Positions 5,008 to 30,781 of a DNA stretch of 64,000 nt are shown in pieces; positions within the stretch are counted from its first letter, which is position 1; the number at the start of each line of letters is the position of its first letter. The translations under genes were made by a program, and so were the position numbers. Under the pieces are notes generated by a model, which was given only the letters and a program-made list of their open reading frames with translations, made no database searches and was not told where the DNA came from. Source of the DNA: Candidatus Woesebacteria bacterium RIFCSPHIGHO2_01_FULL_39_32 (GTDB lineage: Bacteria > Patescibacteriota > Microgenomatia > UBA8517); contig MGGJ01000004.1 of assembly GCA_001792345.1 (NCBI GenBank), forward strand, positions 74,090-138,089, in the 5' to 3' direction.

Positions 5008-5697
5008 ATGTATCCTGGTTGGAGAAATAACTATCTAAGATATAAAACTTACTTTTTAAACGTATTGGGCAGATACAGGGAAAGGGCAGACGTGCGGGTT
5101 TATCTGGAAATACTGCTTTCTCTTACCGCAATCTCAATTTTTTCCGTCTTTGCCCTTCGACCAACTTTGCTAACCATAGCCGAGTTAATCAAAGAAATAG
5201 AATCCAAAAAACTTACTCTTACCCAAATGGAAGAAAAAATAAATAACTTATCCCAGGCCCAAACATTATTTGATAGGGAAAGAGGAAAAATAGTACTTTT
5301 GGACACCTCCATACCCCAAAAAATCGATCCTGTTATTTTTGCCCGGCAGATGGAAGGTCTATCTTCAAAACATCAATCCCAAATTCTTGAAGTCTTAACG
5401 GGCTCAACTCCAATTTCAGGAGAAGTGGTAATCGGAAGCTCAACCGACTCATCCAGTAGCTCGCGAGATGTTGAAGCACTACCAGAAGGTACGCTAACCT
5501 TCAAATATTCAATTCAATTAGTGTCTGCTTTAGATCAATTTACAGCACTTTCCAACTTCCTTTCTGATCTTGAACAACTTCGGCTACCTTCCAAATTAGA
5601 TTCTCTAAGCCTAAGTACAACCGAAATAGATCAAGAAAAATTTTTGTTAATGAGAATAGAAGGAAGATTGCCATATTATTCGAAAGGAGTGGAGTGA
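5008..5697 (+). CDS. PilO-like pilus assembly protein (bitopic, coiled-coil then periplasmic domain)
   Basis: 229 aa, one TM (ILLSLTAISIFSVFAL), coiled-coil segment, position immediately after PilN-like gene; family call by architecture only. Confidence 0.45.
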   Translation: MYPGWRNNYLRYKTYFLNVLGRYRERADVRVYLEILLSLTAISIFSVFALRPTLLTIAELIKEIESKKLTLTQMEEKINNLSQAQTLFDRERGKIVLLDTSIPQKIDPVIFARQMEGLSSKHQSQILEVLTGSTPISGEVVIGSSTDSSSSSRDVEALPEGTLTFKYSIQLVSALDQFTALSNFLSDLEQLRLPSKLDSLSLSTTEIDQEKFLLMRIEGRLPYYSKGVE

Positions 5698-25984: not shown

Positions 25985-26968
25985 CTAATCTTCTATCTTT
26001 TTTACTTCTTTTTTTACTCCTTCACCCAAACTTCGGGTTGAAGTTATTTTTTGGCCGAGCTGAGTAAAGGAAGTCAGAACATTACTCATAATATTATAGG
26101 CGTTGTTTAGATGGCGCTGCAGAACCGATAAATTATCTTCTACTTTTGTGTAGTCCTTTTGAATAGCTCTAAGTGACGACAAAATTAATTGTGCTTCTTT
26201 CTCGATTTTTTGGCCTTCGAAACTCATTAAAATCGCCCGCATGTAGGCATAGAAAGTTGTGGGGGAAACAGGAAGCACTCTTTTGTCCCCCGCATATTCA
26301 AAAAGGCTTTGATTATTAACAATCTCGTAATAAACCGCCTCACTTGGTATATACATCAAAGCATAATCAATTGTTCCTTCGTCGGTTAAAATGTACTTTC
26401 TGGAAATCGCGTCGATGTGATTTCTAACATCTTTCTCGAACTGCCTTTCGTGAAGTTTCTTTTCAGAATCATCTTTCGAAGAACTCATTTTTCTAAAGTT
26501 TTCCATTGGAAACTTAGAGTCAACAGGGATAATCCCCGCAGAAGTTTTTATGGCTGCATCGACTTTTTCGCCAGATTTGAATGTATACTGAAGATGAAAA
26601 GATTGTTTAGGAAGCATTTGAGACAAAAGTTCTTTCAAAACCTGCTCCCCAATATTTCCCCTTAACTTTGGACTTCTCAAAAATTCCTGCAAATCTTTCA
26701 TTCCCCGTCCAATTTCGCTCATTTCTCCGATATTTTTTTGAACTTCCCCAATTACTCTTGCAGCATTATCCAATCTATCATTAAAGGACTTGCTTTGTTC
26801 ATTCAAACGGATGTTTGTGGTTTTTAAGTATTCTAAAAGTTCCTCAGAGGGTTTTTGTTTATCCGAAATCTCAGTTAATCTCTTATTTATAAATAACCCC
26901 AGTATTATTAAACTAGCTGCGACAACTACTACCAAAATAATTGGATCCATTAACTGTAATTTTACCAT
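25985..26968 (-). CDS. rmuC: DNA recombination protein RmuC
   Basis: 327 aa; N-terminal TM, long coiled coil, C-terminal RmuC nuclease-like domain (IPVDSKFP...YALMYIPSEAVYYE). Confidence 0.8.
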   Translation of the reverse strand: MVKLQLMDPIILVVVVAASLIILGLFINKRLTEISDKQKPSEELLEYLKTTNIRLNEQSKSFNDRLDNAARVIGEVQKNIGEMSEIGRGMKDLQEFLRSPKLRGNIGEQVLKELLSQMLPKQSFHLQYTFKSGEKVDAAIKTSAGIIPVDSKFPMENFRKMSSSKDDSEKKLHERQFEKDVRNHIDAISRKYILTDEGTIDYALMYIPSEAVYYEIVNNQSLFEYAGDKRVLPVSPTTFYAYMRAILMSFEGQKIEKEAQLILSSLRAIQKDYTKVEDNLSVLQRHLNNAYNIMSNVLTSFTQLGQKITSTRSLGEGVKKEVKKIED

Positions 26969-26993
26969 TCAACTGAGTTACAATGAAGGAGAC

Positions 26994-27335
26994 GTGAGAA
27001 AAATAGACTTTAGACAAAAACAAATTAAACTCAGGAAAAAATTTTTTCCGACTCTAATCATTACCGTTTTTTTATGGCTACTGGTTGGACTAGTGGTCTA
27101 CTTTGTTGACCCTGAAAACTATGGATCTATTCCTCTTCTCTTCTTCCTTTTTTTTCTGGCCCTACTTTTCACCCTTTCCACACTTTTCGCAAATACACGA
27201 AGGGGGCTGATTGCAACTTGCTCAATTACGGTTTTTCTTATTTTGCGTTATCTCGGAGTGGGAAATATCATTAATTTTTTACTTCTTTTGGGTTTAGCCA
27301 TTGCTTCCGAATTTTATTTTTCTAGAAGCGAATAA
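26994..27335 (+). CDS. Small 3-TM membrane protein
   Basis: GTG start preceded by AAGGAG 7 nt upstream; the longer ORF-track version (26790) would overlap rmuC by 180 nt and is rejected. Confidence 0.4.
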   Translation: MRKIDFRQKQIKLRKKFFPTLIITVFLWLLVGLVVYFVDPENYGSIPLLFFLFFLALLFTLSTLFANTRRGLIATCSITVFLILRYLGVGNIINFLLLLGLAIASEFYFSRSE

Positions 27336-27342
27336 AAACCTA

Positions 27343-27370
27343 TTGACACCCACAAGTCACTTGATATACT
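27343..27370 (+). promoter_or_regulatory. Sigma70-like promoter TTGACA-N16-TATACT upstream of yerC-like gene, followed by 5'-UTR hairpin TCCTCC-N14-GGAGGA
   Basis: Seen directly in the 27336-27448 intergenic region. Confidence 0.4.
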
Positions 27371-27448
27371 GCTTTTATCCTCCTTCACTGAAGTTACGGA
27401 GGACAAGCACTCATACTTCAATAAATAAAACTTCTGCCCAAGATTAAA

Positions 27449-27799
27449 ATGAGGACATCAGAAAAAAATTTAAACCCTTCTTTAAAAAAAGAGATTGAAA
27501 ACATTCTAACTCAAACGATATCTGATCTTCGCGACTTGAATGAAACAAAAGTGTTTTTGGAAGACTTTTTCAACAAATCAGAGTTGGAAGCTTTTACCAA
27601 AAGACTTGCTATAGCTTACTGGCTCAAAAAAGGAAGAAGCTACAATAACATTAAAGATAACTTAAAAGTTTCTAGCGCCACTATTGCAACTGTTCAATCC
27701 ATGATGGACAAACCAGGATTTAAGTTAGCCTTAAAAAAGATGGAGGCAGAAGAATGGGCAAACCAATGGGCAGAGAGGATAAAGAAATTCATTAAATAA
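27449..27799 (+). CDS. TrpR-related YerC/YecD-family HTH protein
   Basis: 116 aa; ...LAIAYWLKKGRSYNNIKDNLKVSSATIATV... matches YerC/YecD Trp-repressor-like family. Confidence 0.7.
   Translation: MRTSEKNLNPSLKKEIENILTQTISDLRDLNETKVFLEDFFNKSELEAFTKRLAIAYWLKKGRSYNNIKDNLKVSSATIATVQSMMDKPGFKLALKKMEAEEWANQWAERIKKFIK
27741..27799 (+). repeat. Direct repeat copy 1 (3' end of yerC-like gene)
   Basis: ~86% identical to 29089..29146 (ATGGAGGCAGAAGAATGGGCAAACCAATGGGCAGAGAGGATAAAGAAATTCATTAAATAA); homology may extend ~20 bp upstream. Confidence 0.8.
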
Positions 27800-28018
27800 G
27801 CCTGGCTAGTTATTGTGGCTTCTATCTTTCTTCCACTCACAAACTTTATATTTATCTTCTGTGGGGTAAGTTGGATCCAGTCGAAGCGGTTGAAGTAATT
27901 CTAAAGTAAAATATCTAGGTTCCTTCTCCAAAGTAACTCCCACATAAAATACTTCTGTTAGTATATTTCAACATAATAACATTTTTGCTATTATCTTATT
28001 ACACCAATAATTTTAGTT

Positions 28019-28510
28019 ATGGAATCTTCAATAAAAACATCAGAGAAGAACAGCGAGAAAATTTTAGTAGCTAAAATAAAAGTTGTAGTTAAAAGGTGGC
28101 ATGGATGGAGCCCCGAAGGATTCAAAATACCTCCGGAGGAGACTATCTATGATAAACCGTCTGGTTCAAGGTTAATTTTATCGGCTTCTAAACACAAAAT
28201 GGATGGGGTTTGGGGAGAGGAAGACCAAAGTACAGAAACGGTGCAAAGGGTGGACTTTATACTGAAAGAGGGATATAGAATCTTTATTTCCCCACACCCC
28301 AAGCTTAAAAATCAGGTAGATCTTGCCCCCGACTCAACGATAGAACCACTAAAAGGAAAAGTTTTTCCTCTCAGTCACGATTTACCCCTAGTTGGCGTAA
28401 CACTTAAGGTTGGAGAGAGTCTTATTATTGATCCTTTTAGACACGACGCAGGAGTCATTTACGAAATTACTATAATTGACATATACGAAAAAGGTAAAAA
28501 GCCAAATTAA
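28019..28510 (+). CDS. Hypothetical protein (163 aa), no recognisable domain
   Basis: Clean ORF inside the segment bracketed by the diverged direct repeats. Confidence 0.45.
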   Translation: MESSIKTSEKNSEKILVAKIKVVVKRWHGWSPEGFKIPPEETIYDKPSGSRLILSASKHKMDGVWGEEDQSTETVQRVDFILKEGYRIFISPHPKLKNQVDLAPDSTIEPLKGKVFPLSHDLPLVGVTLKVGESLIIDPFRHDAGVIYEITIIDIYEKGKKPN

Positions 28511-28529
28511 TAATTAGTAACTAATAACT

Positions 28530-29078
28530 ATGACTGTCACAAAAAGATTTATAATTGAGTGCTACGTTTGTGGAACCGAGTACTTTGGAGAGAAGGTATT
28601 ACTCGAAGACCGTGGCAAATCTATTCCTACACCCTATGTGAAGCGTGTGATGTGTCCCACCTGCAAAGCACCTTACAGACCAAAAAAAGACTTCTTTCTT
28701 CTTGTAGAAGATACTGTTCAAGATTTGGTTGGAGACAAAAATGGGGCAATTCAGAAAATTCTTGACTGCTGCCAATCTGAAAGCGACTTTGAGAAATGCG
28801 AAAAACAAATGCTTAATGAAATAAAAAGGTTTCCTAAACTTATAAATTCATTTGAACGTATAATTAAAGACAGGAAGGTTACGGGTCGCGACGTCGAAGA
28901 TCCCGATCTTACAAAATTTTTTGAACTTAAATTATCAAAATTAAAACAAATAAAAGAATTTTCGAATGAAGAGATAGAAGAAAAAATTCGAGAGGTAGTA
29001 AAAGAGGCAAAAGAATTATTACTTCAAACTAGAAATAAATATAAACAGAATTTGAAAGAAAACGACTTAAAAAATTAA
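28530..29078 (+). CDS. Hypothetical protein with N-terminal CxxC...CxxC zinc-ribbon and Lys/Glu-rich helical C-terminus
   Basis: 182 aa; CYVCGTEY...CPTCKAPY. Confidence 0.45.
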   Translation: MTVTKRFIIECYVCGTEYFGEKVLLEDRGKSIPTPYVKRVMCPTCKAPYRPKKDFFLLVEDTVQDLVGDKNGAIQKILDCCQSESDFEKCEKQMLNEIKRFPKLINSFERIIKDRKVTGRDVEDPDLTKFFELKLSKLKQIKEFSNEEIEEKIREVVKEAKELLLQTRNKYKQNLKENDLKN

Positions 29079-29088
29079 TAAGTTAAAA

Positions 29089-29146
29089 ATTGAAGCAGAA
29101 GAATGGGCAAATCAGTGGGCAGATAGGATTAAAAAAGTTCATTAAA
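29089..29146 (+). repeat. Direct repeat copy 2: displaced, diverged remnant of the yerC-like gene 3' end
   Basis: Translates to ...EAEEWANQWADRIKKVH*, a remnant of the C-terminus of the 27449..27799 protein. Confidence 0.8.
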
Positions 29147-29259
29147 TAGTTAATTGGTTGATTTGTTAATTGGTAAAATACTCCAAATGAATATTCGAGT
29201 CTCAATAATGATGGAAATGAAACTCTCTTAACGGGGGTTAATTTGCTATTTGTTATTTT

Positions 29260-29282
29260 AACCCTCGCAAGAGGGTTTTTTA
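29260..29282 (+). terminator. Rho-independent terminator AACCCTC-GCAA-GAGGGTT-TTTTT
   Basis: 7-bp GC-rich stem, tetraloop, T-run; downstream of repeat copy 2. Confidence 0.6.
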
Positions 29283-29341
29283 ATGCGCTCTAAAAGTCGG
29301 AAAAGAGATTAAATCCTTGAAACTATAGTAAAATATAAGCT

Positions 29342-30781
29342 ATGGCAAAGAAAAATTACTACATAACCACCACTCTGCCTTACGTGAATGCTGAACCCCA
29401 CATTGGATTTGCATTGGAAATTGCGCAGGCAGATGTGGTTGCGAGATTTAAAAAACTTCAAGGATATGATGTTTTTTTTAATTTTGGAACAGATGAGCAT
29501 GGCCAAAAAATATTCCGAAAGGCGATAGAAGAAAAAAAGGGCCCACAGAAATATGTGGATGAATATGCCAAAAAATTCGACCATTTAAAAGAAGCTCTTA
29601 ATTTAAGTTATAACAACTTTATTCGCACAACTGAGCCACATCACAAAAAGGCAGCTAAAGAAATTTGGAGATTATGCAAAAATAACGGCTTTATTCAAAA
29701 AGGTATCTACAAAGCAAAATACTGTGTTGGTTGCGAGCTGGAAAAACAAGACTCGGAATTAGAAGAAGGCAAATGCCCTCTTCACCCCAACTTGGAAATA
29801 GAACTTATTGAGGAAGAAAATTATTTTTTCAAATTCTCTTTATTCCAGAAAAAACTTCTCGATCTTTATAAAAGAAATCCAAAGTTTGTAATTCCAAAAC
29901 ATAGACTAACTGAGATTAGTAACTTTGTCTCTTCGGGCTTACAGGACTTCAGTGTATCTCGACTTAAGAAAAAAATGCCCTGGGGAATACCGGTGCCAGA
30001 TGATGATGAACATGTAATGTATGTCTGGTTTGACGCTTTAACTAACTATATTTCAGCATTAGGATGGCCCAATAACCCAAAAAAGTTTAAAGATTTCTGG
30101 GGAATAACTGAAAATCCGAACGCGATACAATTTGCAGGTAAGGACAATCTCCGTCAACAATCAGCAATGTGGCAAGCAATGTTAATGGCAGCAGGACTTC
30201 CACCAACAAAACAAATTTTAATCCACGGATTTATAACAATTGGTGGTCAAAAAATAAGTAAAAGTTTAGGAAACGTAGTAAATCCATATGATTTAGTTAA
30301 AAAATATGGGACAGATGCAACTAGATATTATTTGCTTGCAAAAATTCCGCCCTATGAAGATGGAGATTTTACTTATGATAAGTTTGAAGAAGCGCATAAC
30401 TCAGATCTTGCTAATGGTTTAGGAAATTTGATTGCGCGCGTTGCCGCAATGGCTGATAAGTCTAACTTTCAAGCACCCGAACCAAAACCACTTTCTTTTA
30501 GTAAAGAAGTAGTTGAATTCATTGGTGGTTACGAATTTGATAAGGCACTTGACTACATATGGTATCGAATAAAAAGAGCGGATGTTTTTATAAACAAAAG
30601 GGGCGTCTGGAATTTGAATGGAACACAAAAACAAGCAGCGCTTACTAATTTAGTTGGAAGAATTAGACAGATAGCTTATGACTTACAACCTTTTTTACCG
30701 GAAACAGCCCAAAAAATTGAAAGGCAGTTTAAAGGACCAAATATAAAATCGGAAAAACCTCTATTCCCTCGACTTAAATAA
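29342..30781 (+). CDS. metG: Methionyl-tRNA synthetase (short form, catalytic core)
   Basis: 479 aa; class I HIGH (PHIGFA) and KMSKS (KISKS) motifs, zinc knuckle CVGC...CPLH. Confidence 0.9.
   Translation: MAKKNYYITTTLPYVNAEPHIGFALEIAQADVVARFKKLQGYDVFFNFGTDEHGQKIFRKAIEEKKGPQKYVDEYAKKFDHLKEALNLSYNNFIRTTEPHHKKAAKEIWRLCKNNGFIQKGIYKAKYCVGCELEKQDSELEEGKCPLHPNLEIELIEEENYFFKFSLFQKKLLDLYKRNPKFVIPKHRLTEISNFVSSGLQDFSVSRLKKKMPWGIPVPDDDEHVMYVWFDALTNYISALGWPNNPKKFKDFWGITENPNAIQFAGKDNLRQQSAMWQAMLMAAGLPPTKQILIHGFITIGGQKISKSLGNVVNPYDLVKKYGTDATRYYLLAKIPPYEDGDFTYDKFEEAHNSDLANGLGNLIARVAAMADKSNFQAPEPKPLSFSKEVVEFIGGYEFDKALDYIWYRIKRADVFINKRGVWNLNGTQKQAALTNLVGRIRQIAYDLQPFLPETAQKIERQFKGPNIKSEKPLFPRLK

Follow-up and report, generated by a model that had tools for sequence, protein, structure and literature searches.

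A two-gene insert in the 3' end of a TrpR/YerC-like gene of a Woesebacterium: a candidate for horizontal acquisition without a dedicated recombinase

At integrase-less hotspots between conserved core genes, cargo turns over by homologous recombination in the flanks. Free-standing homing endonuclease genes can carry a replacement gene end, as in the fungal mitochondrial atp6 case. How accessory genes are gained is poorly documented for bacteria of the Candidate Phyla Radiation (CPR), which have tiny genomes and few recognisable mobile elements. In the 3' end of icd of Escherichia coli, the element e14 leaves the pseudogene icdC, and the exchange of the gene end changes mainly synonymous sites and two conservative residues (PMC13626634, citing Hill et al. 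1989). Displacement of 3' ends has also been described in type VI secretion system (T6SS) and Rhs arrays, where a recombinase-free route via homology-facilitated illegitimate recombination was proposed (PMC5361080). Here, we analysed a 64-kb stretch of DNA (the window) from the uncultured CPR genome of Candidatus Woesebacteria bacterium RIFCSPHIGHO2_01_FULL_39_32, in which two open reading frames (ORFs), ORF163 and ORF182, lie between a TrpR/YerC-like gene (yerC) and the methionyl-tRNA synthetase gene metG, bracketed by two copies of the yerC 3' end. The reading we favour, with somewhat better than even confidence, is that of a horizontally acquired two-gene cassette that recombined into the yerC 3' end at a hotspot between yerC and metG, without a dedicated recombinase.

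The locus shares features with each of these systems. As with e14 (and phage 21) in icd, the target gene is kept functional by a 3' end that arrives with the insert, and at the far junction a short pseudogene is left of the native end. However, e14, a prophage remnant of 15 kb, encodes an integrase and is excised upon SOS induction, whereas the insert described here spans 1.3 kb, has no recombinase and gives no sign of excision, and its cargo gene family lacks a fixed association with the target gene. The layout of Rhs, contact-dependent inhibition (CDI) and T6SS effector-immunity arrays is also found at this locus, with a homology anchor, a new 3' end with its downstream gene(s), and the old 3' end orphaned further downstream. 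The swapped ends of those arrays encode different toxins with cognate immunity genes, which provides their selective logic, whereas the peptides encoded by the two ends at this locus are nearly the same, and no toxin, immunity or defence family could be recognised in the cargo. Conserved flanks (yerC and metG), variable small cargo, a general lack of mobility genes and mosaic flanking alleles are in common with integrase-less hotspots, yet a double crossover in the flanks makes no duplicated gene end, and the remnant represents an extra single-crossover or illegitimate event. Homing endonuclease cassettes likewise replace a native end that persists downstream with a foreign one, and an endonuclease family occupies this spacer in relatives, but neither the insert nor the window contains an endonuclease. 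We regard the locus as a fresh example, in an unusual organism, of the known process by which incoming DNA displaces the 3' end of a gene, and not as a new class of element. As a case study, it offers a clean, datable example of entry via short coding homology in which the host gene stayed intact, the terminator was taken over and the old end was left as a scar. It also shows gene entry into a local recombination hotspot without a visible integrase, and it marks that hotspot for comparative work.

Two copies of the yerC 3' end

Copy 1 of the repeat comprises the last 21 codons and the stop codon of yerC, and is identical to copy 2, beyond ORF182, at 55 of 65 positions (~85%; coordinates in Table 1). 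The similarity begins at yerC codon 97 and ends exactly at the stop codon. The repeat had been noticed in a first-pass annotation of this DNA, and it is real, although its limits had been drawn a few bases short on each side. A repeat search returned two segments, 27736-27787 versus 29085-29136 (85%) and 27780-27798 versus 29130-29148 (89%); the spacing shifts by one base between them, which reveals a single indel, one extra A within an A-run of copy 2. In a local alignment over 4 kb, the two copies scored 81 against 23 ± 2.7 (maximum 38) for shuffled sequences, and a comparison of the two 450-nt flanks gave 81 against a maximum of 29, corresponding to z values of about 21-24. Past the stop codons the homology is not significant (downstream local score 23 versus 18.4 ± 2.5; 18 of 300 shuffles reach 23), and the sole match there is a 14-nt promoter-like stretch, 27901-27914 versus 29323-29336. 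The longest exact block common to the copies, 17 nt (GCAGAAGAATGGGCAAA), sits in those yerC codons that all lineages conserve most strongly, where identity would be expected in any case. A dif/Xer-type site within the repeat was considered and dropped, as no palindromic arms could be seen by eye.

The differences between the copies are not random with respect to the reading frame. From 27740 on, all nine substitutions fall at third codon positions; seven are synonymous, and the other two lead to M/I and E/D. As written, copy 2 translates to IEAEEWANQWADRIKKVH followed by a stop. With the extra A removed it ends in ...RIKKFIK and a stop, as copy 1 does, and both copies then encode the clade-specific peptide ...EAEEWANQWA(E/D)RIKKFIK, the same apart from the M/I and E/D exchanges. 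For comparison we gathered about 70 related yerC loci, 18 from genomes and 52 from metagenomes (compared loci are labelled L###). Four codon states of copy 2 (GAA, AAT, CAG, GAT) recur in the working yerC of L039, and the ATA-AAG-AAA of copy 1 is present in L041. Under neutral decay of copy 2, the chance that its three to four derived changes would all fall at third positions is p about 0.01-0.04. Because all substitutions are at third codon positions, the peptide is the same and the states are common to other lineages, the comparison shows both copies to have evolved as the coding ends of working genes, alleles from related lineages. Apart from the extra A, copy 2 bears no clear sign of decay, which argues that it lost its coding role recently. 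The repeat is evidently neither a target-site duplication nor a decayed tandem gene. That the similarity stops at the stop codon fits diverged alleles, in which selection held the coding part while the 3' flanks drifted apart.

The native copy could be identified by comparison with L036, the closest relative overall (RmuC 80%, methionyl-tRNA synthetase (MetRS) 71%, glycosyltransferase 82% and YerC 82% identity). Positions 29092-29281 of the window, comprising copy 2 and the terminator region, match L036 5217-5391 (73% over 190 nt, E 6e-22), a segment made up of the L036 yerC 3' end and the next 115 nt. The hairpin-plus-terminator element downstream of copy 2 is conserved in L036, L038 and L061. 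Because copy 2 is collinear with the L036 yerC end and its downstream DNA including the terminator (135 nt beyond copy 2), it is identified as the displaced native yerC end, contiguous with ancestral downstream DNA. L036 displays the uninterrupted state of the copy 2 junction. The yerC gene itself is now a hybrid whose last 21 codons are copy 1.

Gene order from RmuC through a small membrane protein (TM) and yerC to metG is kept at all of the ~70 loci with flanks on the contig. ORF163 and ORF182 are absent from all of them save the same-species contig L033, the 219-bp leader in front of ORF163 likewise has no match at these loci outside the same species, and the gap between yerC and metG is just 4-110 bp at many related loci. 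The cargo is thus shown, on sequence comparison, to be foreign to the yerC locus. The first-pass annotation had called for a search for empty sites, which the relatives provide: their yerC-metG loci lack the two genes. Its proposed geometry also stands, namely an insertion into a gene 3' end that brought in a replacement end and left the remnant at the far junction, before an original terminator, for which the terminator scan predicted a terminator-like hairpin with a T-run at 29260-29282. The tandem gene duplication that it had named as the refuting scenario is excluded, as only the last 21 yerC codons recur; tblastn and blastn of yerC against 27800-29341 revealed no other yerC pieces. Within the species, the insert is carried by 24 of 24 read contigs encoding an identical YerC protein, in which no empty site or excision product was found, and five conceivable excision-product proteins are absent from a collection of 15 billion proteins. 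The insert therefore looks fixed within the species.

The yerC-metG spacer in related lineages

The spacer holds different cargo in different lineages: LAGLIDADG genes (L005/L043, L036, L048), Ham1 (L036), a SAM_HAT-like gene (L038), a Phd/YefM-type pair (L054), a B3/4-domain gene (L075), a glyoxalase-like ORF identified from sequence only (L064) and several orphan ORFs. The insertion points also differ, lying inside the yerC end and before the terminator in the window, after the terminator in L038 and at the metG start in L036. Two deeply divergent types of MetRS occur among ~60 loci, one with 58-71% and the other with 38-51% identity to the window protein, and the distribution of the types conflicts with the similarities of RmuC and YerC, which suggests that metG was replaced allelically by recombination. 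The varied cargo, the differing insertion points and the discordant metG types point to a hypervariable hotspot with frequent recombination rather than one att site.

A second displaced yerC end was found in L006/L051, where yerC is followed by an unrelated 196-aa ORF and then by a decayed yerC 3' end of the L007/L056 type that runs into the metG promoter. The remnants score 79 and 105 against 16 ± 2.4 for shuffles, and L050 and L052, 90% identical to L006/L051 in the left flank, are empty sites. Like copy 2 in the window, the remnant begins at conserved codons, GAAGAA (Glu-Glu), within ~10 nt of the position where copy 2 starts. L006/L051 is an independent case with different cargo. Its identity to L056 reaches 97% in the last 40 nt before metG, against 71-74% in the flanks, which suggests that ordinary recombination in the flanks can also carry a complete copy-cargo-copy structure from one lineage to another. 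A survey of the other filled spacers for yerC-end remnants, by alignment with their own yerC ends and with an nhmmer profile, yielded only the window and L006/L051. Two candidates from this survey were rejected, L002 as a marginal, low-complexity match and L084 as a mis-called gene end. In L084, the conserved yerC 3' end lies at 452-611, ~60-130 nt past the end of the apparent yerC match, a shift that may stem from a frameshift, from faulty assembly or from a short insertion within yerC.

Other spacer residents show arrangements of their own. The LAGLIDADG-like genes (L005 6519-7469, L043 5519-6466, L036 6193-7218, L048 1297-1560) lie directly upstream of metG, adjoin both divergent metG types, are 38-64% identical to one another and carry N-terminal helix-turn-helix domains, with LAGLIDADG_3 scoring at about the Pfam cut-off. 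In L036, the start of Ham1 (5536-5564) corresponds to the metG promoter-like box and first codons of the window (29326-29355; ATGGCAAAGAAAAA) with 93% identity over 30 nt, and its own metG begins differently (MSSKKFY), overlapping the end of the endonuclease gene. The arrangement suggests that DNA inserted into the metG 5' end and supplied a new start, a mirror image of the yerC 3' case. Directly after yerC, L054 carries on the minus strand (2081-2576) a Phd/YefM-type antitoxin gene and an overlapping small ORF; the latter is taken as the toxin and has no Pfam match, and metG was not found on this contig. In several lineages, the ORF after yerC starts with an ATGA over the yerC stop (L004 6351, L008 6351, L016 6336, L045 1979). 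Such overlaps suggest translational coupling, and the ORFs have the look of long-established, integrated occupants of the spacer; by eye, those of L016 and L045 (74-75 aa) seem to be related.

Origin of the insert

According to the reading we favour, the donor would have been a related Woesebacterium, and the incoming DNA would have carried that lineage's last 21 yerC codons followed by a cassette of the 219-bp leader, ORF163 and ORF182 (about 1.29 kb). Recombination would have made use of the short homology of the yerC ends. Most naturally, host recombination functions would have joined a circular molecule with a yerC-3'-like segment to the chromosomal yerC end by one reciprocal (Campbell-type) crossover, which yields flanking direct repeats of allelic origin; alternatively, a one-sided homologous exchange may have been combined with an illegitimate join 6 nt past the ORF182 stop. 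The product would be a hybrid but intact yerC, the cargo, the displaced native yerC end, the native terminator and metG. Fixed and immobile, the insert would now belong to the yerC transcription unit, with read-through to the old terminator presumed. Either the homologous recombination machinery of the host or a site-specific recombinase in trans could account for the crossover, and we prefer a recombinase-free event because the cargo is untied to yerC elsewhere, no recombinase was seen at the ~70 loci and neighbouring inserts lie elsewhere in the spacer.

Several points speak against this account. No donor genome was found with yerC followed by the 219-bp leader, ORF163 and ORF182, and the only other ORF163-ORF182 pair (L092) is truncated by the end of its contig, with no metG after it. 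For RecA, 64 bp of homology at 85% identity make a poor substrate, so that a crossover made by the host only would be rare. Over their whole length copy 1 is L036/L041-like and copy 2 is L001/L039-like, and the variant sites do not resolve which copy or half-copy came in. Moreover, the structure of copy 1, cargo and copy 2 may have arisen in another lineage and reached this locus through homologous recombination in the flanks, and a recombinase could be encoded elsewhere in the genome, of which 64 kb were seen.

This last point leads to an explanation that we consider unlikely, in which the yerC 3' end is the attB site of an integrative module, a satellite or decayed island composed of attP and cargo that a tyrosine or serine recombinase mobilised in trans. 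The direct repeats do duplicate the 3' end of the target gene in the manner of attL and attR, with a geometry identical to known 3'-end integrations such as e14 in icd with icdC (PMC13626634), and the 17-nt exact block could be the core. When the variants are polarised against L036 and L001, the private ones cluster on the left in copy 2 and on the right in copy 1, as a reciprocal crossover predicts, though these are only six sites with states common to L039/L041. The start of the L006/L051 remnant within ~10 nt of the same position is also in keeping with an att site. However, family and fold searches with ORF163 and ORF182 revealed no recombinase, transposase or endonuclease in the insert, the ten integrase-sized ORFs of the 64-kb window proved to be other things, and no integrase was seen at the ~70 yerC loci. 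Cargo relatives never occur with yerC or such repeats at nine or more other loci, and the inserts of the nearest relatives lie at other points of the spacer. The element family did not recur at the same att site among the ~70 loci, no coexisting excised or empty form appeared among the 24 contigs, nor an excised form in the protein collection, and no viral or phage relatives were found. As for other integration targets, the window has no tRNA, and no Rfam family was found at E <0.29 within 26500-30000. The first-pass annotation was right that no integrase is present. Its interpretation as an integrative or hitchhiking element or a non-canonical mobile module is not borne out: a recombinase is absent from the insert, as are terminal inverted repeats at 27800 and 29084, the ORF163 family occurs elsewhere without yerC or such repeats, no excision product was found and nearby inserts lie at other points. 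The label of a self-mobile element is not supported by these sequence comparisons.

The LAGLIDADG genes of the spacer raise the prospect that the insert is a by-product of homing, in which a double-strand break made by such an endonuclease was repaired on one side by copying the donor allele and the cargo, while the other end was joined non-homologously and left the yerC remnant, the endonuclease gene being not transferred or lost. Homologous LAGLIDADG genes in the same spacer in three lineages (L005/L043, L036, L048), the mosaic of metG alleles across lineages and the start of two independent remnants at nearly the same conserved codons are consistent with this scenario. Yet neither the insert nor, by tblastn with the L005, L036 and L048 endonucleases, the window holds such a gene, the gene abuts metG and not yerC in all three lineages, which makes the metG 5' end the more likely target, and no cleavage site is known. 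We consider this scenario improbable, and a free-standing homing endonuclease cassette was rejected, as neither ORF163 nor ORF182 belongs to such a family or fold. Direct repeats flanking an insert could also arise in situ, by tandem duplication and decay of yerC or by a target-site duplication of the transposon type; the two ORFs would have emerged between the copies or been brought in there. This we find scarcely credible: the doubling is confined to the last 21 codons, with no other yerC similarity in 27800-29084, and nine of nine third-position differences, several matching alleles of other lineages, would be unexpected under neutral decay of copy 2. The 64 bp also far exceed the target duplications of transposons. 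A transposon or insertion sequence was rejected on the same grounds, given the absence of a transposase and of inverted repeats and the 85% identity of the repeat with third-position differences only.

A bolder reading, to which we attach little probability, holds that the yerC 3' end is a recombinase-free docking site, from which cassettes carrying the last ~20 yerC codons loop out via the flanking repeats and re-insert into the naive yerC of related cells after DNA uptake. If true, this would amount to a homology-addressed gene cassette system in episymbiotic CPR bacteria, poor in classical mobile elements, and the window and L006/L051 with their unrelated cargo would be two independent footprints of it.

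The cargo proteins and other features of the locus

The genes at the locus follow in the order GDPD (minus strand), RmuC (minus strand), TM, yerC, ORF163, ORF182, metG and glycosyltransferase (Table 1). The yerC product belongs to the Pfam family Trp_repressor (PF01371), scoring 50.2 bits against a cut-off of 27 (E 2.7e-13).

Table 1. Features of the yerC-metG locus (window coordinates)
Feature	Position	Strand	Basis or remark
TrpR/YerC-like gene (yerC), 116 aa	27449..27799	+	PF01371; RmuC-TM-yerC-metG synteny with orthologues at ~70 Woesebacteria loci
Repeat copy 1, functional yerC 3' end (K..MEAEEWANQWAERIKKFIK, stop)	27736..27799	+	Repeat search and alignment
Insert leader, 219 bp	27800..28018	+	Unlike native DNA downstream of yerC
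ORF163, small all-beta family, ~19 clusters, function unknown	28019..28510	+	
ORF182, N-terminal CxxC...CxxC zinc ribbon, then helical bundle; rare family	28530..29078	+	
Repeat copy 2, displaced yerC 3' end, +1 A frameshift	29085..29149	+	Begins 6 nt past the ORF182 stop
Native element downstream of yerC: hairpin and intrinsic terminator (stem 29260-29277 and T-run)	29208..29282	+	Terminator scan; relatives
metG, methionyl-tRNA synthetase; conserved right neighbour of yerC, right border of the hotspot	29342..30781	+	

ORF163 and ORF182 probably ride the yerC transcript to the old terminator, because the terminator scan predicted no plus-strand terminator between yerC and ORF163. The leader contains a metG-promoter-like sequence, CTAAAGTAAAATAT, at 27901-27914, a near-copy of the metG box with no ORF behind it. 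In many lineages (window 29323-29336; L007, L012, L015, L056), a TAGTA(A/T)AAT box stands 5-7 nt before the metG start, a distance that suggests a leaderless or near-leaderless metG mRNA.

The ORF163 family comprises the clusters counted in Table 1, 36-63% identical with many invariant residues, and the AlphaFold2 model of ORF163 is all-beta with a mean pLDDT of 68. The family was met in nine or more further genomic contexts, which share no neighbouring genes, contain no mobility genes and never adjoin yerC. In several genomes the ORF163-like gene is preceded by an unrelated 164-167-aa ORF, and in two it stands alone. ORF182 has five distant relatives only among 1.84 billion representatives; C11, C14, C42 and C45 are invariant in all members, and its model (mean pLDDT 82.8) shows the zinc ribbon and the helical bundle. 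At L092, an ORF163 relative (45% identity) is directly followed by an ORF182 relative, P0021 (29%). Because relatives of both stand side by side there, the pair appears to be a recurring, but not obligatory, unit. Two small protein families of unknown function, ORF163-like and ORF182-like, are thereby defined, which travel together or with other partners.

Fold searches including BFVD returned no informative match for either model. The first-pass annotation had raised the possibility of a defence or addiction module, which found no backing: PADLOC gave nothing on the cargo proteins at E up to 1, and PHROGs and Pfam gave sub-threshold matches only. A phage, viral or plasmid origin found no support either, with no DNA match in phage records, no relatives of either family in viral contigs and a negative BFVD search. 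The cargo is probably a small accessory protein pair, because ORF163 pairs with alternative partners in other genomes. A search for the pair at other loci bracketed by similar repeats, also proposed at first pass, turned up no ORF163-family locus bracketed by a duplicated gene end. Among 11 other ORF163-family loci tested, only L025 has flanking repeats of any kind, copies of a dispersed GC-rich repeat. Flanking direct repeats were therefore rejected as a property of the ORF163 module (1 of 11 other loci, and there not a gene end).

In the organism of L025, a 166-aa ORF and the ORF163-like gene form a block of 1279 bp that recurs with 100% identity in contigs whose flanks differ. The block is bordered by direct or inverted copies of a dispersed repeat of ~175 nt with a GC-rich hairpin (GGAGGCGCGGCGGGTGGGGGCGCCGCGCCGGAG; L025 1-179 and 1605-1769, L022 6654-6927, L023 5187-5390), which could be a miniature inverted-repeat transposable element (MITE)-like sequence or may simply break assemblies. 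At L093, an 899-aa DUF8128 protein, faintly TraG-D_C-like (52-2751), is encoded ~1.2 kb upstream of an ORF182-family member, a possible link of this family to a conjugation-type gene cluster.

The native ~75-nt element between yerC and metG (window 29208-29282; L036 5318-5391; L038 5587-5659; L061 ~760-832) is conserved well above the surrounding spacer in these four lineages and has no Rfam family match. It consists of GATGGAAATG, a hairpin and a perfect intrinsic terminator, AACCCTCGCAAGAGGGTTTTTT. Its AACTCTC, GGGGGTT, AACCCTC and GAGGGTT segments could pair alternatively, in the manner of an attenuator.

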